Virus record (IMG/VR): IMGVR_UViG_3300043467_001216
DNA: 64,000 nt
Origin: a virus
Lineage: Duplodnaviria > Heunggongvirae > Uroviricota > Caudoviricetes
Reading direction: 5' to 3' (one strand)
A program made the translations under genes and the position numbers. This document shows positions 32,797-61,853 of the stretch, one piece after another. Numbering within the stretch: the first letter of the stretch is position 1; each line of letters starts with the position of its first letter. Under the pieces are notes generated by a model, which had not been told where the DNA came from, searched no databases, and worked only from the letters and a program-made list of their open reading frames with translations.

Positions 32797-32798
32797 AA

Positions 32799-34839: not shown

Positions 34840-34856
34840 ATATTTTAAATTTAAAC

Positions 34857-34890
34857 AAATCCGTTTTCGATAAAAAATTCAGTATTCATT
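34857..34890. repeat. 34-bp direct repeat, copy 2: orphan 5' end of the dioxygenase gene (MNTEFFIENGFV*)
   Basis: Identical to 33633-33666. Confidence 0.95.
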
Positions 34891-34895
34891 ATATT

Positions 34896-36231: not shown

Positions 36232-36374
36232 ATGTTTAATTTATATTAAATAGTTTATTATTTTCATCATTTATCTCACTTAAAATTGTATTAAAATTTT
36301 TTGACATTTCAAAATAAAAAGGGGTTGCCAAATCTTTAAGTTGATGAATATCTATAATTTCAGTTTCGGTTGGT

Positions 36375-37711: not shown

Positions 37712-37713
37712 TT

Positions 37714-41738: not shown

Positions 41739-44700
41739 GTGAGTCAAAATATTTATCAATATCAAAATTCAAGTGTGGGTTTAAAACTTAGTTTGGACTC
41801 ATACGATATGTCTTTATCATCAGATGAGAGAGACTTCAATCAAGAAGTTGTGTATTCACCTTATTTAATCGCTCAAACATACGGTAATAGATTACCAATA
41901 TATTTTGATATCAATAATACATTAACCGCCCAAAATTTAGTATTATCATATAAAAACTATAATTTTAATAACGTTTTTGTATCTCAAAATTTTAAAATAA
42001 ATGATTCAGAGGATTTAAGTTGTTTCACAGCAAAAACATCTTGTGATATTGGTTTAACAGGAACTGATAACGGTTTAGTTACCGGTATGACCGCACAAAC
42101 AATAACATTTACAAATGGTTTAGTTAATGATTCAGATAAGTTCAATCGTTTAATTTTTGATAGACGATTCAAAATGTTTCAAGTTACAGGGTATACCAAT
42201 ACACCTAATTTTAGATTTTCAGGTTTTGAAGACAATATTTTATATGAAGTTGTAAGTAAAAACAGTCCGTATATTGGTAGATATCACGAATTATATGGTG
42301 GTTTTTATCAAGGTTTCTATAAATTATTTGGGTACGATTATGATATTTTTCCTGAAAGAATGAATAAGGGATGGTCAGTTGAAATGCTATTGAAGCCAAG
42401 ATTGGTTGATGAATACTCACCTGGTCCGGGTGAAACCACATTAAACGAAATTTACCCAAACAACAAAGACACATTTTTCTATTTTGGAGCAAGAGCCGAA
42501 AACAAATATTACCATCACGCTGATGGTTCACCAAGTTCATTAACAGGTTATACTAGAATCACAAAACCTTTAGTTAGTCTTGAGACTTGTGCTTGTTGTA
42601 ATACAGGTGTAACTAATAGTGACTGTATTTATGTTTACCCTCCAAGGTCAAATGATGGTAAACACGACTCACATAAAAATTACGGATGTAATGTATGTGG
42701 TTGTGATACAAAAACTAATGGTGGTAATTGTTCAGGATGTGGTTGTCCACCTGAAGAATATGAAAGTTGTGGATGGGAATGTAAAACACATAGTTGTGGA
42801 ACAGGTACAACCTCATCAATACAGAGTACTTGTGAAAGTAACCCATTAGATGACTCAATGTCAAATGCGTTATCATTTAAACTTTCGGGTGACCCAAAAA
42901 ATCCAAGTATTTGTGTTAGAATATTAAGAATTACCGGTGATTGTGAAACTAGCGGGTCTTGTACCACAACAGGGATTACGTACACCACAGGATACACAGT
43001 TGACGAACATTGTACTTTACCAATTTACCCTAGATGTCAAATTGAAAACCCCGCGTGGTTAGAAGAAGAACATTGGTTTCAATTTAATGCTGTATGGGAA
43101 CGTTATACTTGGTTGGATGATTGTGATTTAAAATATAGAGGTGGATTAGACGATATTACCGAAAAATTATATTTAGAATCGTTAGCGAATAATTCACAGA
43201 TATTAATAACCCCATTTTATAACCACGAAGGTGCTACACCAGCTAAAACAATTGATTTAGTTAAGTTAAATGAAAAATGGTTAATTAATAAAAAATATCG
43301 AAATGGTCGTTTAAAAATTTACATAAATGGTAAATTGTTTCAAACGTTTGAGAATATTGAAGAATTAATACCAAGAGCTTTACCAACTGAAAAAGAAAAA
43401 CAAGTTGGTGTACCATTTAATATTTCTTGGGGTGGGGGAACTCAAGGTTTAAGAGAACATCTAATCCCAAAACAAGTACCTGTTTGTGACATTGTTGGTG
43501 GTGTGTTAATTAATGTTGTTTTGACTTCTGAAATTTTACCGGGTTCAATAAAAATTACTTACACGTTAACATCATCATCAATACTTAACGAAGATTTAAC
43601 TGTTGATTTTAAACACATATTAGATGTTAAAACAGGTAACCCAATTGAAATAATCACGGGTGTAACAATTAACTCAGGTCAAACTACGGGAACAACACTT
43701 GTTAGTTTACCCGATGATTATAATAACTTGAATGGTATAACAACATTTACCTCTGTTGATGCAACAAACCCAACACTATCTAAATGTTGTAACATTAACG
43801 CTAACCCACCAATATTTGCAACACCAACACCAACACCAACTAATACTCAAACCCCAACAAATACTCAAACACCAACTAATACTCAAACCCCAACAAATAC
43901 AGTTACTCAAACTAAAACACCGACTCAGACAATAACACCAACTAATACTAATACTCAAACCATCACCCCAACAAATACTGAAACACCAACACCAACACCT
44001 ACAAATACAATAACACCTACAAATACAATAACCCCAACAAATACTGAAACACCAACACCAACACCAACTAACACAATTACACCAACTAACACAATTACAC
44101 CAACTAACACAATTACACCAACTAACACAATTACACCAACAAATACCGAAACACCAACACCAACTCCGACTAATACAATAACCTCAACAAATACCCCAAC
44201 ACCAACTAATACAATAACACCAAGTTCAACATTAGGAATAACACAAAGTGGATTAATTTTAGATTGGGATATTCAAAATACGTTATCTTATAATGGGTCG
44301 GGGTCTGTTATAACTGATTTGGAAGGTAACTCTAATGGTGTTATAACAGGAACTATTACTTATAGTAGTGGAAGTCCTAATTATTTAACTATTGAAGGTT
44401 CAACAACCGAATATATAAGAACCGGAGGTCTTAATGCGTATCTATCACCTGTTAACACAGGTGAAGTAATGTCATTATTTATGTGGGTTTACCCAATAAC
44501 TAATGGTATTTTATTATGTGAACAAGGAACTACAACACCTGATTCATCTTGGTTTGATGCTCAAATACAACGAAATTCAAGTGGTAATTTCTTATTTGCA
44601 ATTTGGCCATATGTTATAAACGGAACCGCACTGATTACTTCACCTAGTATATACCCATTAAATAATTGGTACTATGTCGGTTGGACATATAATGGAACAA

Positions 44701-44960
44701 CATTAACAGCGTACGTTAACGGTTCATCAGTTGGTACTTACACAGTGAATAGAGAAACACCATATAACAGTAATGGTTTAAATATGTATTATTACTTAGG
44801 ATATCCAACGTCAACTAACTTGGTTACAACACCTGGCGGTATAGGTCAAGGACCCGCATCAACGTTTAGATTTGGAGGATTTAATGTTTATAACAGGGGA
44901 ATCAATTCATCTGAAGTAACCCAAAACTATAATAGTAGTAAATCTAATTATGGTTTATAA
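41739..44960 (+). CDS. Large virion fibre-like protein: interrupted LamG, Cys-rich region, Thr/Pro stalk, C-terminal LamG lectin
   Basis: WSVEMLLKP / LKIYINGK (LamG strands); CxCC/CxxCxC clusters; TP repeat 43820-44225; C-terminal WYYVGWTYNG..LTAYVNG..FNVYNRGINSSEVTQNY. Confidence 0.7.
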   Translation: MSQNIYQYQNSSVGLKLSLDSYDMSLSSDERDFNQEVVYSPYLIAQTYGNRLPIYFDINNTLTAQNLVLSYKNYNFNNVFVSQNFKINDSEDLSCFTAKTSCDIGLTGTDNGLVTGMTAQTITFTNGLVNDSDKFNRLIFDRRFKMFQVTGYTNTPNFRFSGFEDNILYEVVSKNSPYIGRYHELYGGFYQGFYKLFGYDYDIFPERMNKGWSVEMLLKPRLVDEYSPGPGETTLNEIYPNNKDTFFYFGARAENKYYHHADGSPSSLTGYTRITKPLVSLETCACCNTGVTNSDCIYVYPPRSNDGKHDSHKNYGCNVCGCDTKTNGGNCSGCGCPPEEYESCGWECKTHSCGTGTTSSIQSTCESNPLDDSMSNALSFKLSGDPKNPSICVRILRITGDCETSGSCTTTGITYTTGYTVDEHCTLPIYPRCQIENPAWLEEEHWFQFNAVWERYTWLDDCDLKYRGGLDDITEKLYLESLANNSQILITPFYNHEGATPAKTIDLVKLNEKWLINKKYRNGRLKIYINGKLFQTFENIEELIPRALPTEKEKQVGVPFNISWGGGTQGLREHLIPKQVPVCDIVGGVLINVVLTSEILPGSIKITYTLTSSSILNEDLTVDFKHILDVKTGNPIEIITGVTINSGQTTGTTLVSLPDDYNNLNGITTFTSVDATNPTLSKCCNINANPPIFATPTPTPTNTQTPTNTQTPTNTQTPTNTVTQTKTPTQTITPTNTNTQTITPTNTETPTPTPTNTITPTNTITPTNTETPTPTPTNTITPTNTITPTNTITPTNTITPTNTETPTPTPTNTITSTNTPTPTNTITPSSTLGITQSGLILDWDIQNTLSYNGSGSVITDLEGNSNGVITGTITYSSGSPNYLTIEGSTTEYIRTGGLNAYLSPVNTGEVMSLFMWVYPITNGILLCEQGTTTPDSSWFDAQIQRNSSGNFLFAIWPYVINGTALITSPSIYPLNNWYYVGWTYNGTTLTAYVNGSSVGTYTVNRETPYNSNGLNMYYYLGYPTSTNLVTTPGGIGQGPASTFRFGGFNVYNRGINSSEVTQNYNSSKSNYGL

Positions 44961-44982
44961 ACATATTTATAATTAAAAAGTA

Positions 44983-46371
44983 ATGGCATCAACAGTAGTT
45001 ATAGGAACTAGAAATTATAGTGGTGAAACTGCCGAAATTACATTTTACCCAGAAACAGGCGGTACAATAAATGTTGGAATACAAGTTGTTCCTTACAATT
45101 ATACAACTGATTATTTTTTTGGTAAGTATGAATTATTTTTTTCAGCTTATAATTTCACTTGTGACTTTACCATTTCATCATCTAACCCTATACCCTCACC
45201 TCAAACAATAACGGCAACAACCGTTGAATATGATTTATTTCAAAGGTATACTCAAGACCCTGAGAATTTTTCAGATATGGATTTAAGTCCAACCACATTT
45301 AGTGGTTTAAATACTAATATATTAATTAACAAATATTTTGCAGGTTCTTTTGAAGGTGCAATATCTCAATTTAGATTTTACACATCACCCCTATCCGCAC
45401 CTGAAGTTAAACACAATTTTAGTTTATTGAAGAACCCATTTATAATGTTCAATCCTGATTGTCCTGATTGTTCTACAGACAGTTGTGCTATTAATGATTT
45501 TACATATGTAATTAATAACACACAAGAATTAGAACCACCGTTAGAAATTAAGCCGGATGTTTCACTATTAGGTAGAATGTATATCCCTGATATTAGAGAT
45601 AAAAATTACCTAATTAAGGATAACTATGATTATCTACTTAGTATTGTTCGTGCTAGACCTATTGTTAATAAATATAAAATAACACCAACACCAAGTAAAA
45701 GTAGACCAATATTACCAACACCAACACCAACAAGAACACCAACAAGAACACCAACAAAATCTAAACCGGTATTAGTTACGCCAACACCATCAAAAACACC
45801 TGTTTATCAATTTAAGTATTGGGACTCAGATGGTTGGTGGGGTAATCAACGTAATTTACCTCATTGTGTTGGTTATTCTTGGGCTCATTGGGTTGAAGAT
45901 GGTCCTGTAGGTCACGAAGGTACTCCACCAATAATTTCACCTGTTACAATCTATAACGAAGCTCAAAAAATTGATGAATGGCCGGGAGAAAATTATGCAG
46001 GTACATCAGTTAGAGCAGGTGCAAAATATTTACAATCTAAAAACGTAATTAAATCATACTATTGGGGTTACGACTTAAACACGTTAATTAATTCAGTGTT
46101 TGAATTAGGCCCTGTAGTTGTTGGTACTTATTGGTATTCAGGAATGTTTTACCCTAACTCAAACGGGTTAATTAGAGTGACAGGTGGTATTGTCGGAGGA
46201 CACGCATATTTAATAAATGGTGTTGATAAAGAAAAAAAACTTTTTAGAATAAAAAATAGCTGGGGACAAACTTGGGGTAAACAAGGACACGCATTTATCT
46301 CATTCAATGATATGTCAAGATTAATATCAATGAATGGTGAAGTTTGTTTAGCAATCGAAAATAATTTTTAA
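44983..46371 (+). CDS. Modular protein: N-module, LamG C-terminal fragment, TP linker and papain-like (C1) cysteine peptidase
   Basis: NQRNLPHCVGYSW (Q, C), GGHAYLING (H), KNSWGQTWGKQG (N). Confidence 0.85.
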   Translation: MASTVVIGTRNYSGETAEITFYPETGGTINVGIQVVPYNYTTDYFFGKYELFFSAYNFTCDFTISSSNPIPSPQTITATTVEYDLFQRYTQDPENFSDMDLSPTTFSGLNTNILINKYFAGSFEGAISQFRFYTSPLSAPEVKHNFSLLKNPFIMFNPDCPDCSTDSCAINDFTYVINNTQELEPPLEIKPDVSLLGRMYIPDIRDKNYLIKDNYDYLLSIVRARPIVNKYKITPTPSKSRPILPTPTPTRTPTRTPTKSKPVLVTPTPSKTPVYQFKYWDSDGWWGNQRNLPHCVGYSWAHWVEDGPVGHEGTPPIISPVTIYNEAQKIDEWPGENYAGTSVRAGAKYLQSKNVIKSYYWGYDLNTLINSVFELGPVVVGTYWYSGMFYPNSNGLIRVTGGIVGGHAYLINGVDKEKKLFRIKNSWGQTWGKQGHAFISFNDMSRLISMNGEVCLAIENNF

Positions 46372-46375
46372 TTAG

Positions 46376-47542
46376 ATGAGTAATACAATAGTAATATCAA
46401 GTGTTAATTATGACGGTGAGTCAGCTAATATATTATTTAAACCCGACAATGATAATGTCACTATAAATTTAAATAAAGAATTCGGTCAAATTATATTACC
46501 ATATACGTTTGACCCCTCAACTTTAATACCCCCTCGTGATGTATTTGGAACGTACACAATATTAGTTGATAATTCAAAATGTCCTAATTTTATGAACGTT
46601 GTTAGACCAACACCAACACAAACGCCAACTAAAACAATTACACCTACAGTAACTAAAACCCCTACTAAAACTCCAACTCCAACTATAACACCCAACCCTT
46701 GTTTAATTTCTCCAACACCAACATCAACAGTAACTCCAACAGTAACCCCAACATTAACTAAAACCCCAACTCCAACATTAACTAAAACCCCAACTCCAAC
46801 ATTAACACCGTTATCTTGTTTTCAAAAATATAATAATTGGTGGAATACACATTCATTTTTATCATATTCATCAATTACTAATTATTATACTTATTCATAC
46901 TTACCTAGCTCAACGTTTATTAGTACAGGAGGATTATCAATGTTTAATGTCGGTAATACCATTTTATTTAGTAACCCATTTCCAAAAGTCTATGGAACTG
47001 TTGGTACTGATTTTTTAATTAGTAAACCAAATATTTGGCCTCAAATAACATTAATTAATTTAGGTACAACCATTAGTCCACATTCAATATCGGAAATTGG
47101 TTTACCGTCGATTATTTCAGGTAATGACCCAACTTATGGACCATACACTATTACTCGTGAGGTTACATTAACCGAAGGAACTTATAGTTGTAATAACATC
47201 ACTGGTAGTTGGTATCGTTATAGTAATATCGGTGTTAACCCTATATTTTTATCAGGACAAACACCTTGCCCATCAATCGAATATGTTTGGTTTACTGTTG
47301 AATCAACCGATTGGAATACAGTCATTTCTAGTGTTTCCGATAATAGAGGTAGCGTATCAAATCCAAATCAATTAGATTCGACCGTAACAGTCATAGGTGA
47401 AAATGGATTTATTGGTATGATATTATTATCAAAATATAACCCATCGTTACCGTCGACAATAATACCTAATAATCAAATTACAACATTTTTACAAAACACA
47501 ATATGTGAAATGTTTAACAGTGTTAATTGTGTTGATTTTTAA
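46376..47542 (+). CDS. N-module, Thr/Pro stalk and C-terminal beta-rich domain
   Basis: N-terminus homologous to that of 44983; TP repeat 46607-46810. Confidence 0.7.
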   Translation: MSNTIVISSVNYDGESANILFKPDNDNVTINLNKEFGQIILPYTFDPSTLIPPRDVFGTYTILVDNSKCPNFMNVVRPTPTQTPTKTITPTVTKTPTKTPTPTITPNPCLISPTPTSTVTPTVTPTLTKTPTPTLTKTPTPTLTPLSCFQKYNNWWNTHSFLSYSSITNYYTYSYLPSSTFISTGGLSMFNVGNTILFSNPFPKVYGTVGTDFLISKPNIWPQITLINLGTTISPHSISEIGLPSIISGNDPTYGPYTITREVTLTEGTYSCNNITGSWYRYSNIGVNPIFLSGQTPCPSIEYVWFTVESTDWNTVISSVSDNRGSVSNPNQLDSTVTVIGENGFIGMILLSKYNPSLPSTIIPNNQITTFLQNTICEMFNSVNCVDF

Positions 47543-47623: not shown

Positions 47624-50600
47624 ATGAGTGTAATATATATAACAAGTTTAACAGGTCATTCACCTTACGACATAACAATCTGTGATTTAACTAGAACATA
47701 CTGTGAAGTTGTCTTAACAGGTGTCGTTTCGGTCCCCCCTGTATTGGAGATACCCGCGTTTGAACCTATTGAAGGTGAACCGTTATCTGAAGTCTTAGTT
47801 ATTGTTACCGATTCAACAGGTTGTGAAGAATTCTTATACTTATCTTGTGAACCAACACCAACCCCAACACCTACTAATACGGTCACACCAACAGTAACCC
47901 CAACACCTAATAAGTGTAAGTGTTACACAATTATTAACCCAACGAATGACCCATTACCATTTCAAATAACTTTATGTGATGGTAATACATTAATTACTGA
48001 TATTGACGGGGATACCACATTATATTATTGTGGTTATGATGTTGTCGTTGAGTCACCTGTGTATATTTTAACACCTAAATTTGGTTGTGATGTCAACGGA
48101 TGCCCTGAACCATACCCAACGTCAACTCCAACACCAACAGTCACACCTACTTTACCACCAGTTATTGGTAACTTTAGAAGTTGTTGTGATTCATCTTATG
48201 AATTTAGAATATCAAACATTCCTGGGTCGTACTCACCATTAAATGGTACTTATTTTATTTCAAATACAAACTTTGAAGGATGTGCTCAATATATTGGGAG
48301 TACAACCTCACCGATAATATTCCAACACCAATTTATGGGTCAATCAACTAATTGTTATGATTGTCAAATTGAAAACCCATCTTATTTGTGTTTAACCCCA
48401 ACCCCAACCCCGACAGTTACCACCACTAATACTGTCACCCCGACGGTGACTCCAACAAATACCGAAACACCAACTCAAACACCTACAAACACTAATACTC
48501 AAACACCAACTGTTACCGAAACACCAACTCAAACACCAACTGTTACCGAAACACCAACTCAAACGCCAACTGTTACCGAAACACCAACTCAAACTGTAAC
48601 CCCAACTGTTACCGAAACACCAACGCAAACTATAACACAAACTGTTACACCAACAAATACAATAACAAGAACACAAACACCGACTAACACAAGAACTCAA
48701 ACACCGACTAACACAAGAACTCAAACACCAACAAATACTAACACACAAACCAAAACACAAACTCCAACTAACACTAACACACAAACTCCAACTAATACTG
48801 AAACCCCTACTAACACACCAACCAACACAAATACACCAACAAATACTATTACACCTACTAACACAAGAACACAAACACAAACGCCAACTAATACTATAAC
48901 TCAAACACAAACCCCGACAAATACTAGAACACAAACACCAACAAATACAAGAACACAAACACCAACAAACACAATAACATCAACACAAACACCAACAAAC
49001 ACAATAACATCAACCAACACACCAACTAATACAAGAACACAAACTCCAACAAAAACACAAACACAAACACCAACAAATACTCGTACACAAACACCAACAA
49101 ACACAATAACACAAACACCAACAAATACTCGTACACAAACACCAACTAATACTCGTACACAAACACCTACAAAAACACAAACACCAACTAATACTATAAC
49201 TCAAACAAAGACACAAACACCAACTAATACTATAACTCAAACACAAACACCTACTAATACTATCACACAAACCCCAACAAATACTAACACACAGACACCG
49301 ACTAACACACAGACCCCAACTAATACTAACACACAGACCCCAACTAACACTATTACTCAAACTCCAACTAATACTATCACACAAACAAACACTCAAACAC
49401 AGACAAGAACTCAAACCCCAACAAATACTAATACGAGTACACCAACAAACACAATAACACAAACACAGACAAGAACTCAAACCCCAACAAATACAAGAAC
49501 TCAAACCCCAACAAATACAATAACAAGAACACAAACAAGAACACAAACCCCAACAAATACGCCAACAAAAACACAAACACCCACAGTAACCATAACACCA
49601 ACTAACACAAGAACTCAAACACAAACACCAACAAATACTATAACCCAAACACCAACAAATACCACAACAAACACCCCAACCACAACTCAAACACCAACAC
49701 CAACAACACCATATGATTTATTTATCGTTGAAAGTTGTTGTAATAATACAACAGGGTTTATGGAATTACCAATTAGTTTCACACCAACTTTTTTCCCAAG
49801 TTTTTCATCATTTGTTGTTTCAGATACTAATGGATTTTGTTATAAAATCATATCATCAGGTCCTGGTGGTGAAACACCTGACTTATTTTGGAATGGTAAT
49901 TATAACGACGTATACGTTGACACGGGTAACGGATGTGTGAATTGTATTTTAGTTCACCCTTGTCCTACCGCAACACCTACACCAACAAGAACACAAACAC
50001 CGACTAACACTAAAACACCGACTAACACTAAAACACCAACCCAAACCCCAACTAACACTAAAACCCAAACACAAACACCAACTAACACAAGAACACAAAC
50101 ACCAACAAATACTAGAACACAGACTCCAACCCCAACATTGCCACCATTAATTTGTTTTAGATACACAAATAACATAACATCAGGTCAAATTCTGTACAAT
50201 ACAACTGCCGGAGGTTTTATCTATGGTAAACCTTACTATGGTATTATAGATTCATTTACCGTTATTGGTTATGTTTGGTTTGACCCTACATTACAAATTT
50301 GGAAATATTCAGAATCAATTGGTAGTGGGATAATATTCAGTATTTTAAATTTAGATAGTGAATATCCGGTAAGTAATTCTTTACATAATTGGACAGGTTC
50401 ATTTGACGGTAATTCTATGTTATCCTCCAACATTGGTATTTGTTCCACACCAACACCAACACCAACAAATACTAAAACACCAACTAATACTCAAACACAA
50501 ACCCCAACTAATACTCAAACACAAACCCCAACTAACACACCAACTAACACACAAACTAACACACAAACTAACACTCCCACAAATACTATCACTCAAACAC

Positions 50601-53600
50601 CAACCAAAACTGTAACACCGACTAACACTCGTACACAAACACCGACTAACACTCGTACACAAACATCAACTAACACATCAACACCAACCAAAACAGTCAC
50701 ACCAACAAATACTATCACATCAACACCAACTAACACCCAAACACCAACAAACACAATAACACAAACACCAACTAACACTGTAACACAAACTAACACATCA
50801 ACACCAACTAACACTATTACCCAAACCCCAACAAATACCATTACCCAAACCCCAACAAATACTATCACTCAGACACCTACACAAACTAAAACCCAAACAC
50901 AGACAAGAACACAAACTCCAACTAACACTGTTACACCAACAAATACTAGAACACAGACTCCAACCAACACAATTACACAGACACCAACCAAAACTCAGAC
51001 ACAGACTCCAACAAATACTAGAACACAGACTCCAACAAATACTAGAACACAGACACCAACCAACACAATTACACAGACACCAACCAACACAATTACACAA
51101 ACTCAAACAATTACTCAAACACCAACTAACACTCAAACTCAGACTCCAACAAACACACCAACCAACACAAATACGTCAACGGTAACAAGAACTTCAAATG
51201 TTACCCAAACACCAACCAAAAGTCCAGGTGCAACACCCGCCTCAACTCAAACCCAAACACCAACAAATACGATAACCCCAACAAATACGATAACCCCAAC
51301 AAATACACCGACAAGAACTGTTACACCAACAAATACTAGAACTCAAACACCAACAAATACTAGAACTCAAACACCAACAAATACTATTACTCAAACACCA
51401 ACAAATACTAGAACACAAACACCAACAAATACTAGAACACAAACACCAACAAACACAATCACACAAACCCCAACAAACACAATCACACAAACACCGACTA
51501 ACACAGTTACACCAACAAACACAGTTACACCAACAAACACAATTACACAAACCCCAACAAATACTAACACTCAAACACCAACCAAAACTTCCACACCAAC
51601 AAACACAATTACTTCAACACAAACACAAACAAGAACTCAAACCCCAACTAACACTAATACGCCAACAAATACTCGTACACAAACACCAACTAACACAATT
51701 ACACAAACACCAACAAGAACACAAACACCAACAAATACAATTACACAAACCCCAACAAAAACCATTACTCAAACACCTACTAATACAATAACACAAACAC
51801 AAACTCCTACTAACACTATTACACAAACACCTACTAATACAAGAACACAAACACCAACAAAAACAGTTACCCCAACAAAAACAGTTACCCCAACTAATAC
51901 AATAACCCAAACACCGACTAACACAAGAACTCAAACAAACACACCAACACAAACCCCAACTAACACAAGAACTCAAACAAACACACCAACACCTACAACG
52001 ACACAAACCCCAACCCCAACAAATGCTTGTTATCCAGGAGCTGATTATATTGTTTTGGTTTATAATTTCCCTCCGGGGTCAGGTTTTGGTTTAAATACTG
52101 AGACAACATTAATAAACCCATTAACCCAAGGTCCTTTAGGTTATTGTGTTACAGGTTCTCAACCTTCAGGTATTTATGGTGGTCCATATTTATTTTGGGG
52201 TGGTGATAATACTAACTCACAAGGTTCTGAGTCAATTTATGTTAGCGTTACTTCTTTAAAAACAGCATACCCCACACTATCATCAATACAATTAACCTCT
52301 AAAGCAAATTGGTTAACATCATTCACTACAGGAGCGTTAAACATTACTATGTACGCTTATTCTGGAGGTACTATGATTAGTAACACCAATTTTGGTTTCA
52401 TAAATGTTGGTGGTGTTTTATTAGCTCAAAGAAATTTCCCACAATCAACAATCACAGGTTTAAACTGTCCTAATAATCAGTGCGTTGGAACATTCACATA
52501 TGACATTTCCAGCGGATGTTTTAGTAAAATACCTTGTATTGAACCAACGTCAACCCCTACCCAAACATCAACTCCAACTAACACTCAAACACAAACTAAC
52601 ACACAAACTAATACCCCAACTAATACCACAACTCAAACCCAAACCCCAACAAACACAAGAACACAAACCCAAACCCCAACAAACACAAGAACACAAACAC
52701 AAACACCGACTAACACAAGAACACAAACACCGACTAACACAAGAACACAAACACCAACTAAAACTGTAACGCCAACAAATACTATAACTAATACTAGTAC
52801 ACCAACAAATACTATCACACAAACACCTACTAATACAAAAACCCCAACTAATACTATAACTAAAACTAACACTAGTACACCAACAAATACTATTACTCAA
52901 ACCCCAACAAACACTAACACACAAACCCCAACAAACACAAGAACACAAACACAAACCCCAACAAATACAAGAACACAAACACAAACCCCAACAAATACAA
53001 GAACACAAACCCCAACAAATACAAGAACACAAACCCCAACAAATACAAGAACACAAACTTCAACTAATACACCTACACAAACTAAAACCCAAACACAAAC
53101 TCCAACAACACCTTATTCAATCTTTAAAGTTTCAAGTTGTTGTTTTTCATCTCCGGTTACTTACTATATGTCGTTACCAACTATATTTCAACCTATCATA
53201 GGACCTCCTGGTGGTAATAGTTACTCATATTCAGTTGTTGACACAACCGGTCAGTGTTTTGTTGTTAATGAATTAATAACTTCACCATTACCCCCTAACA
53301 AATTTTGGAATGGTAACTACGGTCAAGTGTATGAGGGTATTAACACCAACCCTTGTATTCAATGTAACACTTTCAATCCGTGTCCAACACCAACTCCAAC
53401 ACCAACAGTAACATCAACACCTACTAACACTGTTACCTCAACAGTAACATCAACACCTACTAACACTGTTACAAATACACCAACTAGAACTGTCACACCA
53501 ACTAGAACTATAACACCAACTAGAACACAAACACCAACAAGAACACAAACACCAACTAACACTATAACACAAACACAAACACCAACAAATACAATAACAA

Positions 53601-56600
53601 GGACAAAAACACCTACTAACACAAATACCCCGACAAGAACTCAAACACCAACCAATACCCCAACAAGAACAGTCACACCAACAAATACAATAACAAGGAC
53701 AAAAACACCTACTAACACAAATACCCCGACAAGAACTCAAACACCAACCAATACCCCAACAAGAACAGTCACACCAACAAGAACAGTCACACCAACAAAC
53801 ACAATAACAAGAACAGTTACACCAACCAATACAATAACAAGGACCCAAACACCAACTAACACAAGAACACAAACGCCAACAAACACAATTACAAGAACAC
53901 AAACGCCAACAAATACAATTACAAGAACTAAAACTCCAACAAATACATCAACACCATCACCAACACCACCAATAGAATGTCATTGTTTTAACGCCACAAA
54001 TACACCTTCAGGTATAATAATACCGTCTTTAGGTAACGCCTCACCTTACCCAATAACGTTTAACGTATCTGGTTTAGATTCACCTGTAACTAGAATTGAA
54101 GTTAGAATTAGTGGTTACTCACACGCAGACTCTAGTGATGTCGCAATGATTTTAAAATCACCAAACGGTAACACCGCTTTGTTAACAGGTAGACAAGGAA
54201 CATCAATCCAACCTGTTAATAATGTTAATACAATTTTAACTGACTATTCACCAACATTATGGGATGGTTATAGTTCAGGTACTTACACTAACGACACTTA
54301 CGTGTATAAATCAATTGCGTGGAACACCTCAGGTTTACCTGATTATACCGCAACTCAAAATGGTAATAGTTTAACAACATTTATCGGAACCTCAGCTGCT
54401 AACGCAAATGGTACTTGGGAATTATATATTCAAGATTTTGGTATAAATGGGGGTGGTAATATTTTAGGTATCATTATATGTATTTGTGATTATACTATCC
54501 TACCATCTCAAACCCCAACTCAAACCCCAACACCAACTAATACCATTACAAGAACTCAAACACCAACAAATACAATTACAAGAACTCAAACTCCAACAAA
54601 TACAATTACAAGGACTCAAACGCCAACAAATACAATTACAAGAACTCAAACGCCAACAAATACTTCAACACCAACTAACACACCAACAAGAACGGTTACA
54701 CCAACTAATACAATTACAAGAACTCAAACCCCAACAAATACAAGAACTCAAACCCCAACAAATACACCAACAAGAACTCAAACCCCAACAAATACTCGTA
54801 CCCAAACTCCAACAAGAACACAAACCCCAACAAACACAATAACAAGAACACAAACACAAACTCCAACAAGAACACAAACCCCAACAAACACAATAACAAG
54901 AACACAAACTCCAACAATTACACAACCACCATTAATTTGTTTCACAGTTTCAACAGGTTTTGTAACTTGGACTTCTAACGTAAGTTCTTTAGGATTTTTT
55001 AATGGTTACCCTTATTATCCAATTTATGACTCAAATTCAATTTTAATAGGGTATGTTTACCTCTCACCAGGTGCGGAGGAATGGTTTTTCTCCTCATTAT
55101 TAAACGGTGGTGAAACCTATTCAGTTCTTACAGGTGGTATCGGAACACCACAATACCCAATAAATAACACTCCTTTTTTATGGACTGTTGAGGGGGGTAT
55201 TTATTATATTACTCAGTCAACATTAGGTGTTTGTCCGACACCAACACCAACACCTACAAATACCACAACACCTACAAATACCACAACTAAAACCCAAACA
55301 CCAACAAGAACTCAAACCCGAACCCAAACACCAACAAGAACCCAAACCCAAACACCAACAAGAACCCAAACCCAAACACCAACAACCCCATATTCATTAT
55401 TTCAAATTCAAAGTTGTTGTAATTCATCATTACATTTAATGTCATTACCAACAATTTACACACCATATTATGACAACCAACAATTTTTAACAATAACTTG
55501 GTCAGTTATTGCAACCGATGGTCTTTGTTATAAAATACTTGGAGTGTCAACTGGCACACCAAATAAGATATGGAATAACGCCACACCAACACAAAATCTA
55601 CCTTGGGCTCCTGACCCTTGTACATTATGTGTACCATCAAATGTTTGTCCAACATTAACACCAACACAAACACCAACACAAACACCAACTAAAACCCCAA
55701 CACCAACAAATACAATAACAAGAACTCAAACCCCAACAAATACAATAACAAGAACTCAAACCCCAACAAGAACGGTTACACCAACAAATACAATAACAAG
55801 AACTCAAACCCCAAGTGTAACAAAAACCCCAACAAACACAATAACAAGAACTCAAACACCAACAAGAACGGTTACACCAACTAACACAATAACAAGAACT
55901 CAAACACCAACCCCAACAAAAACACCTACAAGAACACAAACCCCAAGTGTAACAAAAACCCCAACAAACACAATAACAAGAACACAAACAAAAACCCCAA
56001 CTAGAACCCAAACACCAACAAACACAAGAACACAAACGCCAACTAGAACTCAAACACAAACCCCAACAACACCATACACATTATTCAACGTTATTAGTTG
56101 TTGTGATTTGGTAACTCTTCACAAAATGTTACTACCAACAATTTACACACCAAGTCAATTCCCGTATTTTACTTATGTAGTTAAAGATACATTAGGACAA
56201 TGTTATCAAATTTTTGAATCAACGACAGGTGTTGCAAATAAAATATGGAATGGTGCACAACCCGCTTATGACCCAATTGGTGAACAATGCGGTATCTGTT
56301 TACAAACAAATCCTTGTCCGACACAAACACCAACACAGACAAGAACACAAACCCCAACAAAAACACCTACAAGAACACAAACCCCAAGTGTGACAAAAAC
56401 ACCTACACAAACGCCAAGTGTGACAAAAACCGCAACAAATACACCAAGTGTAACAAAAACACCTACAAGAACACAAACACCAACAAAAACGCTAACTCAA
56501 ACACCAACAAAAACACCAGTACCTCGTCTATGTTCTATGAGTGGTTATGTTTATGAAATATCTTGTTCTTCATTATATTGTGTTGTACCTTGTTGTAGTT

Positions 56601-59011
56601 TAAATCGTGTTTATCCTGAGTCAAATTGTGTTTTACCTTCAACCTGTAATGACCCATCATATATGGTCAGTATACCAAATATTGATATAAACTTTTTAGA
56701 TGACAGTTTCTTTCAGATTACTACCTCAGACCTTGAATGTTTTGATTGTGATAGTAATTGGACTGACGTTGATGAGAACATCGCCATTAACAGAAATGAA
56801 TTTTTACAAAAGTATCTTCAAAATTTAGATTATAGATATAATGGTTGGACTACAGATGTTAACTCATTAACTTCTTATTACCAATTTTTTGGTAGTAATA
56901 GTTCCAAATTTTCCAGAACTAAACTTAGATTAGTTAATTATAAGTGGTATAGACCGTTAAATTATTATGAATCTTGGACCACACCAACTTTTTGTACAAC
57001 ATCACTATCAACAATATTTGGACCAATAACAGGTTTTACTTATTTACCACCAATTAACAACATATCATTAGCACCAACACCTAGTGTTAATGGTCGTTTA
57101 ATTGTAACAACAGGAGCAACACAATCAACTTATTTTTGGAATCCAACAACTAATACTTGGACTGACATTAACAATACTAGTTGTGTTGCACAAAGTATAA
57201 ACCAATTATTACTTGTTATGAACCAAATTAGGAATATATCAAGTAGTAAAAAAAGCACATTATTATTAGGAAATTCCGTTTTTACCAAAATAGGATTATA
57301 TTTACCAGCATTTCAATTTTTTAAATATAGAAATTATACATTACCATCAGGTCCATTAAGTTTAAGTGAGACCGAAAACATTGTTACAGAACCAATAATT
57401 GAACAAATAACCGAACCATTACAAATAAGTTGTTTAGCCAATAGTTATGTTATGGTATTACCTGAATCATTACCAAGCAATACGGTTGTTAAAGATAATA
57501 ATGGTTTATGTTATAGAACAATACAAGAAAACCCGATAAATAGCCCTTACATAGGACCAATGTTATATCAAAGTGGTTCTACAACATTTGTTGATTGTCA
57601 AAACTGTAGTAACTCAATTACAGTTCAAATATTAGCACAAACTGATTTACCTTTATACGCCAATTGTGACATAGTTACCTCAACAAGTATGGTATATCGT
57701 GTTAATAACGGACCTTGGGTTACTTTATCTTCAGTAGTTGACGCTACCGGTACGACATACACAGTCTTAAATTCTATAACAGTTGGTGTAGGTGTTACTA
57801 TTGATGTCTATTTTCCAGGAATCAAATGGGGTGTCGGATATTTATCAGGTGATTATACATCAAGATGTGATAACCAATATTACACATATTCAGTTTCTAG
57901 CTTAGCTAATGGTGTGATATATTTTAATTTAAAAAGTCAGGTAACAGTACTACCTGTACCGCCATTTATTCAATATCAATGTGGATTTGAACCTTGCCCC
58001 TCATTTACAATTCCCAATCCTTGGAGATGGACATGGTATGATTCATTTACCGAAGATAATATCTTCACAATGTCAGAATCACCTGGTGTTTGGAATGGTA
58101 GAAGATATTATGAAGTACCTAATAATAATTATACTTCAACAGTTTCTTATGTTTGGTATGATACCCCAACAACAAATTGGTATAATTCATCTGTGTTAGG
58201 TTCAGGTACTTTATATTCTTATTTAGAGAGTTCATCGCCTACACAACCAATCAGTGGACCATTTAATCAATGGGTTGATTTATCAAGTGGACCATATATT
58301 ATGATTAGTTCAGAACCTCAATACCCAATTGAAGTGTCGGGTCTTGTAGTATGGTTAGATGCTGGTTCTGATTTATCTTGGCCTAGTTTGGGAACTGCGT
58401 GGAACGATATTACGGATAATAATAATAACTCAACATTTTACCAATCATTAGTACCAACAAATGCCGCAACGGTTTTTTCATCAGATAAAATGGGTAATTT
58501 TAGTTTTAATGGTAGTAATCAAAAATTCGCAATTCCTAACACATCAACATTATCAGCAATTACTAACACAGTATCAGTTGAGGTTTGGTTGAAACCAACA
58601 TTATTTGCCAATCGAGAAATTTTCAGTAAAGGTAGTAATGATGGGATAAGAATGAGAATTGACCCAACAGGTCACTTATGGATGTTGGGAGCAAATGCAC
58701 CTGGAATTGGTTTTGGCACATACACAAGTACAGGAACAACAACATTAAACCAATGGAATCAAGTTGTTGGTGTATGGACATCAACAGGTTTCTACACATA
58801 TATTAACGGTGTTGATTCAGGATATGATTTAAACTTGTCATTATTAATACAAGACTATAACTTACCACTTGATATTGGTTGTTTTACAGGTGACAATTCT
58901 AACTTCCACTATCAAGGTTATATGTCAATATTTAGAATATATAATAGAGCGTTAACTTCCGATGAGGTATTGTCTAATTTTAACAGTCAAAAAGATAGAT
59001 TTGGTTTATAA
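47624..59011 (+). CDS. Giant 3,795-aa mucin-like Thr/Pro-repeat protein with interspersed Cys-rich modules, a proprotein-convertase P-like domain and a C-terminal LamG
   Basis: Single open frame with about 1,800 aa of T-x-T-x repeats. Six SCC..C..CxxC modules; P-domain-like [27 protein letters not shown] (about 53975-54490); Lam[32 protein letters not shown]. Confidence 0.85.
48395..56520 (+). repeat. Degenerate 18/24-nt coding tandem repeats (TPTNTI / TQTPTNTR) in about nine blocks
   Basis: A/C-rich, G-poor acaccaacaaatac units; largest blocks about 48395-49710 and 50446-52022. Confidence 0.95.
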
Positions 59012-59063: not shown

Positions 59064-60311
59064 ATGAAAATTTTTGTGCAAATTGCATCGTATAGAGACC
59101 CTGAATTGGAGAACACAATTAAAAGCATGATTGAGAATGCTAAAAAACCTAACAATCTTAGAATTGGTGTTTGTAGACAATACCACCCTGAAGATGGTTT
59201 TGATACCTTAAATGAATTTAGAAAAGATAAAAAATTTAGAATATTAGATGTTTTATATAACGAATCTAAAGGTGTTTGTTGGGCTAGAAATCAAGTACAA
59301 CAATTATATGGTGGTGAGGAATACACACTTCAGATAGATTCACATATGAGATTTGAAAAAAATTGGGATGATGAATTTATTAAAATGGTTAAACAATTAC
59401 AGAAAAAAGGATTTAAAAAACCTTTATTAACGGGGTATGTATCATCATTTAACCCTGAAAATGACCCGGCTGAAAGAATTAAAGAACCTTGGAGAATGGT
59501 GTTTGACCGTTTTATCCCCGAAGGTGCGGTATTCTTTTTACCTGAAACAATACCAGGTTGGGAACAATTAAAAGAACCTGTAACATCAAGATTTTACTCA
59601 GCTCACTTTGCCTTTACTGTAGGTCAATTTAGTACTGAGGTACAACACGACCCTGAATTTTATTTTCACGGAGAAGAGATTTCAATCGCCGCTAGAGCTT
59701 ATACTCACGGATATGATTTGTTCCACCCACATAAAACATTGATTTGGCACGAATACACAAGAAAAGGTAGAACAAAACAATGGGATGATGATAAAGAATG
59801 GGTAATGAGAAATAATGTGTCACATAGTAAAAACAGAAAATTGTTTGGTATGGATGGCGAATTATCTGATGTTGATTTTGGTATTTACGGTTTTGGTACT
59901 GAGAGAACACTTAAAGAATATGAAATTTACTCAGGTTTAAGATTTTCAAGACGTGCGGTTCAACAATACACGTTAGATAAAAACTACCCACCAAATCCAT
60001 TTATATTTGAAACCGAAGAGGAATGGGAAGATAGTTTTGCTACAATATTTAAACATTGTATTGATGTTGGTTATGACTCAGTACCTGAAACAGATTATGA
60101 ATTTTGGGTAGTTGCTTTCCACGATGAAAATGATGAAACAATTCATAGACAAGATGCTGATATTAACGAAATTAATCGTATGAAAAATGACCCTGACGGA
60201 TATTGTAAAGTATGGAGAGAATTTCAAACAACACATAAACCAAAGTATTGGGTTGTTTGGCCGTACTCGACATCTAAAGGATGGGGTGATAGATTAACAG
60301 GTAGTTTATAA
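59064..60311 (+). CDS. GT60-like polypeptide/hydroxyproline alpha-GlcNAc-transferase (Skp1 Gnt1 / 'GlcNAc' family)
   Basis: IFVQIASYRDPEL, GVCWAR, YTLQIDSHMRF..NWD, FHGEEISIAARAYTHGYDLFHP...WHEY. Confidence 0.85.
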   Translation: MKIFVQIASYRDPELENTIKSMIENAKKPNNLRIGVCRQYHPEDGFDTLNEFRKDKKFRILDVLYNESKGVCWARNQVQQLYGGEEYTLQIDSHMRFEKNWDDEFIKMVKQLQKKGFKKPLLTGYVSSFNPENDPAERIKEPWRMVFDRFIPEGAVFFLPETIPGWEQLKEPVTSRFYSAHFAFTVGQFSTEVQHDPEFYFHGEEISIAARAYTHGYDLFHPHKTLIWHEYTRKGRTKQWDDDKEWVMRNNVSHSKNRKLFGMDGELSDVDFGIYGFGTERTLKEYEIYSGLRFSRRAVQQYTLDKNYPPNPFIFETEEEWEDSFATIFKHCIDVGYDSVPETDYEFWVVAFHDENDETIHRQDADINEINRMKNDPDGYCKVWREFQTTHKPKYWVVWPYSTSKGWGDRLTGSL

Positions 60312-60325: not shown

Positions 60326-61105
60326 GTGAATGTTATAGCATCAAAAATATTTGGAGGTCTAGGTAACACAATGTTTCAAATAGCAACAGGATATTCAAAA
60401 TCATTAGATGAAAATTCTGATTTTATTGTTGATATTACGGAACTTTATAATAATCATCACCCGATATCCAAATATGTTAACAATATCTTCCAAAGAATAA
60501 AATTATCATATAACAAAATACATTATGATGTATATAATGTTCCACATTTTCATTATTGTGAATTACCTAATTTTGATAGAAACATTAAATTATCAGGATA
60601 TTTCCAAAGTGATAAATATTTTAAGAAAAACCGAGAAAAAATATTAGAGATTTTCGAGTGTAATAACGAAATTAAAGAAAAATTGTTAATTAAATATAAT
60701 GATATTTTAAAAACTAAAACTTGTTCAGTTCATATTCGAAGAGGTGATTATCTTCATTTAAATAATTACCACCCTGTTTTATCTTTTGATTTTTATGAAG
60801 AATCTTATAATATTATTGGTGAGGATTCGACATATCTTATATTTTCAGATGATATTGAATTTTGTAAAACCAACTTTGACTTCATTAAAAATAAAATTTA
60901 TATTGAAGGTTTAGAAGATTATGAAGAATTATACTTAATGTCATTTTGTGATAACAATGTAATTGCTAATAGTAGTTTTAGTTGGTGGGGTGCTTGGTTA
61001 AATAAAAAAGAAAATATCGTTATCTCCCCCCGTAAATGGTTTGGTCCGTCTTATAGTTCATACATAACAGACGACCTTTATCCTGATAATTGGTTAATAA
61101 TATAA
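60326..61105 (+). CDS. GT11 alpha-1,2-fucosyltransferase
   Basis: GGLGNTMFQ, GYFQSDKYF, VHIRRGDY, IFSDDI, IANSSFSWWGAWL. Confidence 0.92.
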   Translation: MNVIASKIFGGLGNTMFQIATGYSKSLDENSDFIVDITELYNNHHPISKYVNNIFQRIKLSYNKIHYDVYNVPHFHYCELPNFDRNIKLSGYFQSDKYFKKNREKILEIFECNNEIKEKLLIKYNDILKTKTCSVHIRRGDYLHLNNYHPVLSFDFYEESYNIIGEDSTYLIFSDDIEFCKTNFDFIKNKIYIEGLEDYEELYLMSFCDNNVIANSSFSWWGAWLNKKENIVISPRKWFGPSYSSYITDDLYPDNWLII

Positions 61106-61118: not shown

Positions 61119-61853
61119 ATGAACTTAAATGAAATACCAAAATTTGTCCTAAACTTAGAAAAAAGAACCGATAGATTAGAACATATTAAACAGGAAATGT
61201 CGTACATTGGGTGGGACTATGAATTATTTAAAGCGATTGACACAGGGTGTCATGTAGGATGTACATTATCTCATGTTGCCATTATTGATTTAGCGATTGA
61301 AAGAGATTATGAATACGTTATGGTAATTGAAGATGATTGCTCATTTTTACCTAACGCTAAATCATTTATAAAACAATTAAATGTTGTTTTAGAAAATACC
61401 GAATTTGGGATTCTAAATTTATCCCCAACACATAATCGACCTGTTGAAATTAGTGTGAAAGATAAAATGTTAATAGATATTACTAATTATCCACCAAAAG
61501 AAGAAATACATAGGGGTGTTTATGCGACAAATATGATTGTATATCATAAATCAATATATGAGAATGTTAAGGGAATTATAACTGAAAATTTACATGGTTA
61601 TTACCCAATTGATGAGTATATTTATCTTAAAGTATTACCAATCAAACAAAGTTATTGCCCAATATTACCAATAGCCCCTCAAAAAAGTGATTTCTCAGAT
61701 GTTACCCAAGGTAATTATAGTAATTTTTATCTACAAACATACAATTGGAACTTATATTCCCCATATAAAATAGATTCAGAATTTTTAAATTACGAATCTA
61801 ATCAACAAATAAAAAAGAATAATATACATAAAGAATTTAATTATGTCAGTTAA
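61119..61853 (+). CDS. GT25-family glycosyltransferase
   Basis: VLNLEKRTDR, GCTLSH, VIEDD, PIDEY. Confidence 0.85.
   Translation: MNLNEIPKFVLNLEKRTDRLEHIKQEMSYIGWDYELFKAIDTGCHVGCTLSHVAIIDLAIERDYEYVMVIEDDCSFLPNAKSFIKQLNVVLENTEFGILNLSPTHNRPVEISVKDKMLIDITNYPPKEEIHRGVYATNMIVYHKSIYENVKGIITENLHGYYPIDEYIYLKVLPIKQSYCPILPIAPQKSDFSDVTQGNYSNFYLQTYNWNLYSPYKIDSEFLNYESNQQIKKNNIHKEFNYVS

Follow-up and report, generated by a model that had tools for sequence, protein, structure and literature searches.

A Giant Modular Protein Encoded Next to a GT60-Type Glycosyltransferase

The window analyzed here, a stretch of 64,000 nucleotides from the IMG/VR virus record IMGVR_UViG_3300043467_001216 (Caudoviricetes), carries a single uninterrupted open reading frame (ORF) of 3,795 aa (positions 47624-59011, + strand), called the giant ORF below. 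We propose, with moderate confidence, that it encodes a long modular virion adhesion fiber of a T4-like myophage, in which disulfide-clamped beads would be connected by O-glycosylated (Thr-X)n linkers. The giant ORF holds all nine copies of two repeated modules, A and B, and ten (Thr-X)n tracts, and the adjoining gene encodes a glycosyltransferase (GT) of the GT60 type (PF11397).

The domain borders were obtained by Thr-density segmentation of the giant protein (Table 1). The N-terminal domain N1, a second module N2, and module A1 precede the first tract; modules A2 to A5, B1, B2, the single-copy module C, and a P-domain-like module alternate with the tracts; and the C-terminal 834 aa have no linkers and contain A6, B3, and a terminal Laminin_G_3 (LamG) domain. 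The match of the P-domain-like module is marginal (24.2 bits vs. a cut-off of 21, covering only positions 10-65 of the 86 in the PF01483 profile) and has no counterpart in PHROGs. N2 matches neither Pfam nor PHROGs, and parts D and E of the linker-free block yielded nothing in Pfam beyond a sub-threshold Kelch_6 match (E-value 0.27).

The idea that the ORF is an assembly artefact or a non-coding repeat was ruled out: the frame is open over 11.4 kb, and the independent contigs L002, L003, and L005 keep the module order and the C-terminus at module identities of 26-85%. The closest orthologue, ORF 1-9945 of the IMG/VR contig L002, has modules 54-85% identical to those of the giant protein (74% in the case of module C), while the adjoining GT60 protein is 95% identical. 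In this orthologue, module B precedes the P-domain, whereas it follows the P-domain in the giant ORF. The difference between these identities and the swapped order of the modules indicate that the fiber gene evolves faster than that of the enzyme and shuffles its modules.

The Thr-X Tracts

The ten tracts amount to 1,723 aa, including 863 Thr residues (50.1%). Another Thr is present at position +/-2 in the case of 855 of these 863 residues, and only 15 Thr-Thr neighbors occur. The alternate position X is occupied by Pro (229), Gln (189), Asn (177), Arg (94), Ile (64), Val (39), Lys (35), and Ser (25), and the charge is strongly biased (129 Lys and Arg vs. 6 Asp and Glu). No Cys was counted in any of the 1,723 residues. 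The long Thr/Pro tracts described in the first-pass annotation are therefore real, and are more exactly ten strict Thr-X tracts in which Pro is just one of several X residues. Ice-binding T-x-T arrays and cross-beta polar zippers were considered as models for the tracts and set aside, Pro being found every few residues (229 Pro). The tracts would serve as extended spacers, the total length of which would reach about 0.5 um in the fully stretched state, taking about 0.3 nm per residue (our own estimate).

The DNA of the tracts consists of degenerate tandem repeats, whose periods are multiples of 6 and whose matches reach 61-100%, which explains both their extreme C and A skew and the occurrence of spurious ORFs on the reverse strand. 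Eight such ORFs of 110-226 aa, all with TTG starts, lie within the tracts (window positions 48392-56059, - strand); they are by-products of the repeats, not genes.

Two other Thr-linker proteins are encoded in the same genome. The second one (879 aa; L001:6978-9617, - strand, genome positions 148977-151616) consists of N1, a Thr-X tract of about 600 aa, one module A, another tract, and a short tail of hydrophobic/acidic repeats. The third one (375 aa; L001:14107-15234, - strand, genome positions 156106-157233) has a Cys-rich N-terminal variant resembling module B and Pro/Thr (PT) linkers; its 630-aa relative P0033 additionally bears a standard module B.

Modules A and B

All six copies of module A and all three copies of module B listed in the first-pass annotation were recovered, with coordinates agreeing within about 30 nt, and the modules were found to align significantly with each other. 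In pairwise BLASTP comparisons between 17 pieces of the giant protein, A2 to A5 matched each other with E-values of 1e-11 to 1.6e-20 at 35-47% identity, B1 matched B2 (5e-15) and B3 (1.5e-6), and A2 matched A6 (5.8e-5), while the match between A1 and A5 reached just 0.045. In a leave-out test, a profile built from A2 to A5 alone was run over 683 sequences taken from the genome of the phage itself: A1 was retrieved with an E-value of 3.3e-4 and A6 with 0.028, the best unrelated piece scoring 0.077, and a seventh copy was detected in the gene of the 879-aa protein (1.1e-9). A profile built from B1 and B2 retrieved B3 (2e-8), the next match being 0.52. Judging from its sequence, A1 is a diverged subtype of module A, and orthologues of the A1 type are present in L005, L015, L028, and L082-L085. 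A6 is indeed degenerate, as had been noted earlier. Its membership appears marginal on the basis of the leave-out profile alone; it is backed by the L002 orthologue, which shows the same reduced Cys pattern, and four of the six Cys columns are kept.

Modules A2 to A5 and the piece holding A1 matched no Pfam-A family (hmmscan, E <= 1), B1 and B2 gave only sub-threshold matches to unrelated families (0.25 and 0.12), and no match was found in PHROGs for A, B, N1, or N2. Modules A and B are also rare. A search with a seven-copy profile of A through 1,835,955,588 representative proteins returned 28 proteins at E <= 1e-3, 6 of them at E <= 1e-10. The 12 proteins examined among these 28 were all modular, the A modules being either separated by PT or Thr-X linkers or arranged in tandem, with other domains at the ends. 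The profile of B gave five matches over the longer proteins. Iterated searches over all the sequences fetched yielded 154 unique copies of A and 21 of B.

The structure of both modules was predicted confidently using AlphaFold2. The model of A (22-sequence alignment) shows five strands and a C-terminal helix, with a predicted local distance difference test (pLDDT) score of 90.1 and a predicted template modeling (pTM) score of 0.79; that of B (13-sequence alignment) is a nine-strand meander (pLDDT 89.9, pTM 0.82). Foldseek found nothing in the PDB at E <= 0.001 for either module (best E-values 2.1 for A and 0.36 for B). In exhaustive alignments with VIA, the best results for A (Z 3.3, root-mean-square deviation (rmsd) 3.5-3.8 over 52-64 residues) were obtained with Rrp44 and a Tudor domain, and those for B with a de novo beta-barrel (Z 5.4, rmsd 4.0, 88 aligned residues) and HtaA CR (Z 5.2, rmsd 3.3, 87 aligned residues), all of which lie below the background level of the tool. 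Neither the small barrels of the SH3/Tudor type for A nor the eight-stranded meander barrels of the lipocalin, avidin, and HtaA-CR type for B therefore gave a match rising above background. The nearest clusters of B in the ESM Atlas are unnamed and are mentioned here as a lead only. On these grounds, A and B seem to be domain families with no recognized relative; we do not claim that they are proven new folds.

The N1 Domain

N1, which corresponds to the first 75 residues of the giant protein, contains four Cys residues that are invariant in the 14-sequence alignment, and it also opens the 879-aa protein (BLASTP 2e-5). Searching IMG/VR with an N1-bearing relative led to 22 loci, where N1 occurs in four forms: alone, as an ORF of 68-74 aa with no tract, preceding the GT60 gene (L093, L096, L098, L100-L102); with a short acidic tail rich in Phe, Asp, and Gly (L089-L092, L094, L095, L097); with a Thr/Pro tract only (L099, L103); and with tracts and modules. 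In 20 of these 22 loci, a GT60 gene is present within the flank. The nearest clusters of N1 in the ESM Atlas are unnamed viral proteins of 74-108 aa, which again provide only a lead.

A complex of three N1 copies was modeled with a score of 0.57, which passes the mark set for the tool, as compared with 0.01 in the best control; the runs agreed in at least 89% of the contacts, and the pLDDT of the partners was at least 69. This mark was reached by 20 of the 30 proteins solved as same-chain pairs and by 1 of the 23 solved as single chains, and since this calibration was performed with two copies and their own alignments, the rates hold only roughly for the three-copy N1. The modeling supports the view that N1 would self-associate, and we infer that it may be a constant attachment or bundling module, the remainder of each protein being a variable payload.

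In several phages, N1 or the last tract is followed by a short motif present in two to three repeats, each made of a hydrophobic stretch and then acidic and Gly residues, in the ORFs starting near 6001 in L089-L092, L094, L095, and L097 and at the C-terminus of L001:6978-9617 (- strand). These repeats may be a second attachment or trimerization element.

Is the GT60 Enzyme Associated with the Tracts?

The genes found 3' of the giant ORF are, in order, GT60, GT11, GT25, an unassigned gene, and an HtrL_YibB-family gene. The GT60 match exceeds the curated cut-off (237.1 bits vs. a cut-off of 21, positions 94-350 of the 352 in the PF11397 profile). The protein has no membrane segment (maximum hydropathy 0.88) and no signal peptide, and it is soluble like the cytoplasmic Gnt1, a GT60-family enzyme acting on Skp1. 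Its D92-S-H94 motif is kept unchanged by 71 of 71 aligned homologues, and we take the D-x-H/D-x-D of GT60 to be the catalytic GT-A metal-binding motif of the family. According to PMC3769586, the GT60 enzyme of Trypanosoma cruzi, which is similar to Gnt2 of Dictyostelium, adds alpha-linked N-acetylglucosamine (GlcNAc) to Thr residues of mucins. The characterized members of GT60/PF11397 modify Thr or hydroxyproline residues of polypeptides. The phage gene is a candidate initiating polypeptide O-GlcNAc transferase.

The neighborhood of this gene was compared in related phages. IMG/VR contains 399 relatives of GT60; among the best 80, which are 74-95% identical, the upstream gene was visible in 79 loci. 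A T/S/P tract of at least 40 aa was present in the gene directly upstream of GT60 in 56 of these 79 loci, vs. 85 of the 891 other genes of the same loci. When only unique sequences were counted, the proportions were 42/61 vs. 56/670, which corresponds to an odds ratio of 24, not corrected for the kinship of the loci. The closest cultured carriers of GT60 are Xanthomonas phage XacN1 (ORF334), Xoo-sp13, Stenotrophomonas phage CM1, and RAS14, which show 45-48% identity across 98% or more of the length, the enzyme of XacN1 being 47% identical to the phage GT60 studied here. In PMC5852040, the authors reported at least two virion glycoproteins of XacN1 and attributed them to phage GTs.

The most serious alternative, which we nevertheless consider unlikely, is that the giant protein is a virion fiber with unglycosylated, flexible or extended Thr-X linkers similar to the PT linkers between bacterial enzyme domains, and that GT60, GT11, and GT25 act on host envelope glycans, on another phage protein such as N1, or on DNA. 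The facts that N1-only ORFs with no tract precede GT60 in six loci, that the tract of the gene upstream of GT60 is shorter than 40 aa in 23 of the 79 loci, and that the two other Thr-linker proteins of the genome are encoded about 73-80 kb away from GT60 would all fit this alternative, as would the numerous genes for GT2 enzymes, methyltransferases, and aminotransferases located at 24-39 kb in the window, which resemble a polysaccharide-type machinery. The same first three facts weigh against the glycosylated fiber, and so do several others. The GT60 loci belong to related phages and are not independent, and because tract-less N1 ORFs precede GT60 in six of them, the conserved pairing may be that of N1 with GT60, or plain synteny, instead of that of the tract with GT60. 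The GT60 sequence had no match among the solved structures searched, and the giant ORF325 of XacN1, which lies near its GT gene and was considered as an equivalent giant substrate, was rejected, since it has just two short PT linkers. In addition, the giant ORF lies outside both the head gene block and the tail gene block, the interface of the modeled N1 trimer is an asymmetric pairing of edge strands, which is a frequent product of such models, and two of the five models of B were poor (pLDDT 65.8 and 55.4).

On the other side, the characterized GT60/PF11397 members act on Thr (PMC3769586) or hydroxyproline residues of polypeptides, genes with tracts are strongly enriched directly upstream of GT60 (the odds ratio given above), and XacN1 virions have been reported to contain glycoproteins (PMC5852040). 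Furthermore, a passive spacer does not need 50% of Thr with almost no Ser (863 Thr vs. 25 Ser).

Cysteine Residues: Disulfides or Metal Binding

The six conserved Cys residues of module A are all retained in 114 of the 154 unique copies. When residues are missing, they tend to be lost as fixed pairs: Cys2 and Cys6 in eight copies, Cys1 and Cys4 in eight, and Cys3 and Cys5 in two, while one copy retains only Cys3 and Cys5. The other patterns of loss (8 + 5 + 4 + others) affect the domain ends and may reflect truncated copies. As far as module B is concerned, both terminal Cys residues are present in 12 of the 21 unique copies, neither of them in 6, and a single one in none, the last 3 copies being the N-terminal variant, which has another pattern. 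The six copies with no end Cys are of the embedded B3 type. More generally, the copies embedded in the linker-free block (the B3 type, and A6, which lacks Cys2 and Cys6) miss these residues, while the linker-flanked beads retain them. The module copies are inter-related, and the counts given above are therefore not counts of independent events.

The loss of Cys residues as fixed pairs argues for three independent disulfides (1-4, 2-6, and 3-5) in module A rather than a four-ligand metal site. The first-pass annotation had left the choice between metal binding and disulfide formation after lysis; the paired losses favor the second possibility. It seems quite improbable to us that the cysteines bind metal, A, N1, and their relatives being Zn (or Fe-S) knuckles folded in the reducing cytoplasm and forming no disulfides. 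The fact that the giant protein is made in the cytoplasm with no signal peptide, the C-x-x-C pair and the adjacent C-C pair of module A, and the failure to find any phage thiol oxidase in the Pfam scan of the called genes are all in keeping with knuckles of this kind. A metal site is not what would be expected, however, from a module A whose Cys residues disappear in twos, according to three fixed pairings, with the other four retained, nor from a module B with exactly two conserved Cys residues, located at its ends and jointly present or absent; nor was any column of His or Asp ligands found to be conserved alongside the Cys residues.

As regards the route of oxidation, the giant protein shows neither a transmembrane-like segment (the Kyte-Doolittle maximum over 19 residues being 1.48) nor an N-terminus resembling a signal peptide, and no member of the Erv, thioredoxin, or Dsb families was found in the 146 called genes (Pfam, E <= 1e-4 or E <= 0.01-1). 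GT60 is likewise devoid of such segments, and given these findings taken together, oxidation after lysis would be the simplest route. The Cys residues of module A would then pair as Cys1-Cys4, Cys2-Cys6, and Cys3-Cys5, and in the linker-flanked copies of module B, a single bond would tie the N-terminus to the C-terminus. With the two ends of every bead linked in this way, a pull on the thread would be carried past the fold. No clear prolyl hydroxylase was detected by Pfam in the same 146 genes, which include just one PhyH-like dioxygenase (Table 1).

Proposed Architecture of the Fiber

The glycosylated fiber that we favor would be built as follows. N1 would hold the protein on the particle or bundle several chains together. 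The beads located between the linkers would be A, a small six-Cys beta-barrel with a helix, B, a meander beta-barrel of about 100 aa, C, and the P-domain, and together with the LamG tip they would provide multivalent binding to surfaces of the host or of the environment. The LamG domain is well supported (69.4 bits vs. a cut-off of 27.6, positions 1-150 of the 151 in the PF13385 profile); this end of the protein matches phrog_8510 'virion structural protein' (1.4e-15) and shares 29-31% identity with the C-terminal ends of S-PM2 p176 (annotated as 'virion structural protein') and of a 'structural protein' of a Flavobacterium phage, and it is the probable distal binding tip. The giant protein and GT60, neither of which has a signal peptide or membrane segment, are made in the host cytoplasm, where the soluble adjoining GT60 would probably place an N-acetylhexosamine (HexNAc) on the Thr residues of the linkers, and GT11, GT25, and other phage transferases would probably extend the glycan. 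The outcome would be a mucin-like, hydrated thread resistant to proteases.

A more ambitious version of this scheme, which has a small probability, would be that mucins are produced by the phages themselves in a freshwater-type, T4-like clade: N1-anchored threads half a micrometer long, with cytoplasmic Thr glycosylation initiated by GT60 and disulfide-clamped beads, would form a virion glycocalyx. GT25 and GT11 would extend the sugar to a Fuc-Gal-GlcNAc-type chain like the core of the protist Skp1 glycan, the beads would be two fold families with no solved relative, and the glycocalyx would set the adhesion and diffusion of the virion as well as its resistance to proteases and grazers.

It is very improbable that the product is instead a free mucin-like polymer released at lysis or shed, which would act as a decoy, contribute to a matrix, promote aggregation, or coat the lysing cell or its neighbors, since the C-terminal LamG is common to proteins annotated as virion structural and N1, a small conserved domain, opens several different tract proteins in the way an attachment module would, even if the location of the gene outside the head and tail blocks and next to accessory glycan genes, the size and composition of the protein, which are odd for a fiber, and the modeled self-association of N1, which could also drive polymerization, would be compatible with a polymer of this kind.

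If the glycosylated fiber is confirmed, a mucin-type O-glycosylation would be wholly encoded by a phage and carried out in the bacterial cytoplasm, with hundreds of potential sites on the substrate. Phage virion glycosylation is known so far from only a few cases. The end-to-end pattern of the disulfides would suggest a simple design for a tension-proof bead on a thread, and the combination of a soluble GT60 with a Thr-X acceptor would offer a compact means of producing mucin-like glycopolymers in bacterial cells. Such fibers could also govern the sticking of abundant uncultured phages to hosts, particles, or mucus. A, B, and N1, which have no entry in Pfam or PHROGs, are candidates for the definition of families, and A and B have no relative among the solved folds.

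Comparison with Known Systems

The first-pass annotation had compared the giant protein with the animal gel-forming mucins. The beads-on-a-string layout holds: in both cases, very long Thr/Pro-rich tracts are broken by small repeated Cys-rich globular domains. The analogy is stronger than could be told at that stage, because the next gene encodes a GT60/PF11397 glycosyltransferase: an initiating polypeptide HexNAc-transferase of the GT-A family, which is a candidate in the case of the phage, is thus present in the same genome as its potential substrate. The term 'gel-forming' finds no support: no VWD, CK, or other mucin polymerization domain was found by Pfam, as the N-terminal 260 aa contain neither VWD nor CK, and the C-terminal 834 aa contain Laminin_G_3 only. 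The parallel with the CysD domains is an analogy with no homology, as the annotation itself had stated, the phage modules matching no mucin Pfam family at E <= 1. Two further differences are that the phage tracts are strictly of period 2, basic, and almost free of Ser, whereas the Pro/Thr/Ser regions of animal mucins are irregular, and that the phage protein originates from the bacterial cytoplasm and not from a secretory pathway.

The GT60 systems of protists (TcOGNT of T. cruzi, Gnt2 and Gnt1/Skp1 of Dictyostelium) involve enzymes of the same PF11397 family as that of the phage, which matches it with the score given above. The phage enzyme differs in that it has no membrane anchor and that its neighbors are GT11, GT25, and HtrL-like genes. 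The candidate acceptor of the phage is Thr-rich, like the T. cruzi mucins (PMC3769586).

Virus-encoded glycosylation of virions as such is already known. It is also documented in mimivirus fibrils and in the C-terminal tails of mycobacteriophage capsid and tail-tube proteins. The capsid of the chlorovirus PBCV-1 is a case cited in PMC5852040. As proposed here for the phage, these viruses bring their own GTs, which act on their own structural proteins in the host cytoplasm. The substrates differ, being capsid or fibril proteins with short Thr-X tracts or none. To our knowledge, none of these cases has been reported to involve a GT60 initiator or kilobase-scale alternating-Thr linkers with Cys-clamped beads. 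XacN1 and its relatives have other genes downstream of GT60, such as a carbamoyl transferase, and no N1 or A/B modules were found in the stretches of XacN1 examined.

In bacterial multidomain glycoside hydrolases with PT linkers and in Bacteroidota surface adhesins, each domain likewise terminates in Cys-Pro, after which comes a PT-rich linker. The linkers of the phage protein differ in being strictly Thr-X and tens to hundreds of residues long, typical bacterial PT linkers being far shorter, and in belonging to a phage protein.

In the literature searched, no description of a phage mucin-like fiber and no phage PF11397 gene were found. The new elements here are the statistics of the modules, their rarity, their models, and their lack of fold matches, together with the pattern of Cys pairing, N1 and its stand-alone forms, and the strict Thr-X periodicity.

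Genomic Context

The window corresponds to bases 17091-81090 of a single contig of 173,656 bp with a G+C content of 31%. Judging from its gene content, the source genome is that of a T4-like myophage: the genes of the large terminase, portal, prohead protease, and T4-type major head protein were detected, and the same contig carries, beyond the window, sheath, tube, gp25/J-type, T4 baseplate, gp32, RecA-like, ribonucleotide reductase, and DNA polymerase B genes. The nearest records of the major head protein are just 34-42% identical and belong to uncultured huge phages, Flavobacterium phage immuto, and Microcystis phage Mel-JY01. At least 10 further sugar-related genes are present in the genome, some of them in an island located on the - strand of the window (Table 1).

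Table 1. Positions of the features of the giant protein and of the sugar-related genes in the window.
Feature	Position (nt)	Residues (aa)	Strand	Support and remarks
Sugar-modification island	24279-38931		-	Pfam/PHROGs matches
GT2 genes of the island	25025-25828, 28662-30176, 31527-32231		-	Pfam
Two CmcI-like methyltransferases of the island	30173-31508		-
Hexapeptide acyltransferase of the island	32236-32796		-
PhyH-like dioxygenase of the island	32799-33665		-
DegT-like fragment of the island	35599-36231		-
PHROG glycosyltransferase of the island	37714-38931		-
N1, conserved domain of about 75 aa, four invariant Cys	47624-47848	1-75	+	14-sequence alignment
N2, second Cys-containing N-terminal module	47897-48130	92-169	+	L005 counterpart 42% identical
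Module A1, diverged 'A1-type' subfamily	48143-48403	174-260	+	leave-out profile, E 3.3e-4
(Thr-X)n tract 1, 434 aa	48404-49705		+	degenerate tandem DNA repeats
Module A2	49706-49978	695-785	+	BLASTP, profile; AlphaFold2 pLDDT 90.1
(Thr-X)n tract 2, 50 aa	49979-50128		+	Thr-density segmentation
Module B1	50129-50458	836-945	+	BLASTP, profile; AlphaFold2 pLDDT 89.9
(Thr-X)n tracts 3 and 4, 248 and 256 aa, with a 16-aa irregular interruption at 51203-51250	50459-52018		+
Module C, 180 aa, single copy	52019-52558	1466-1645	+	phrog_24956 (unknown function), 1.2e-18
(Thr-X)n tract 5, 182 aa	52559-53104		+
Module A3	53105-53398	1828-1925	+	BLASTP, profile
(Thr-X)n tract 6, 184 aa	53399-53950		+
Proprotein-convertase P-domain-like module	53951-54523	2110-2300	+	PF01483, 3.5e-5
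(Thr-X)n tract 7, 130 aa	54524-54913		+
Module B2	54914-55246	2431-2541	+	BLASTP, profile
(Thr-X)n tract 8, 45 aa	55247-55381		+
Module A4	55382-55663	2587-2680	+	BLASTP, profile
(Thr-X)n tract 9, 136 aa	55664-56071		+
Module A5	56072-56326	2817-2901	+	BLASTP, profile
(Thr-X)n tract 10, 58 aa, less regular	56333-56506		+
Parts D and E of the linker-free block: Cys-rich start, remainder unassigned	56507-57403		+	L002 counterpart 56-57% identical
Module A6, degenerate, embedded (not linker-flanked), second and sixth conserved Cys missing	about 57404-57643	about 3261-3340	+
Module B3, embedded, terminal Cys pair missing	about 58004-58318	about 3461-3565	+	B profile
Laminin_G_3 (concanavalin-like) domain, C-terminal	58508-58969		+	PF13385, 5e-19
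GT60-type glycosyltransferase (PF11397), soluble	59064-60311		+	5.3e-70
GT11-family (fucosyltransferase family) gene	60326-61105		+	PF01531, 1.1e-22
GT25-family gene	61119-61853		+	PF01755, 1.4e-15
HtrL_YibB-family gene, 571 aa, extending beyond the end of the window	62729-64000		+	PF09612, 5e-16 and 1.3e-15

Immediately 5' of the giant ORF, three genes are present on the + strand (window positions 41739-47542). Their products are a protein of 1,073 aa bearing a Laminin_G_3 domain, one of 462 aa whose C-terminus is a papain-like Peptidase_C1 (phrog_16701 'peptidase', 1.3e-49), and one of 388 aa. A 683-aa chaperone of the ClpB/ClpA type, with a double AAA+ (L113; genome positions 15312-17363, - strand; AAA_2 2.5e-67, ClpB_D2-small 3e-22), the end of which overlaps positions 1-273 of the window, could conceivably assist in the handling of giant repetitive proteins.

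SprB repeats are characteristic of the gliding adhesins of Bacteroidota. The phage genome encodes a 714-aa SprB-repeat protein (PF13573, 1.5e-25; L118, genome positions 140103-142247, + strand), next to which a small ORF (L001:2333-2701, + strand) resembles such a repeat followed by a poly-Thr stretch. The module B relative P0034 carries precomputed SprB-repeat and Por_Secre_tail annotations (PF13573, PF18962), and searching the N1 pattern in representative bacterial genomes gave a single match, in a 3.8-kb contig of a Bacteroidetes metagenome-assembled genome (L120). These three observations give a weak hint of a Bacteroidota-type host, which is too little to name the host.

Several other genes were noted as well. 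The first half of a 519-aa protein (L105:6738-8297, - strand) is a complete superoxide dismutase of the Fe/Mn type, with both Sod_Fe_N and Sod_Fe_C, while the C-terminal half to which it is fused is unassigned. At L104:1717-2424 (- strand) and L104:2494-3677 (+ strand), a protein with an NAGPA-type phosphodiester glycosidase domain is encoded, along with adjoining proteins with YspA-type SLOG and cREC_REC domains, and two RNA ligases are encoded near this glycosidase-type gene (L104:5376-8416).

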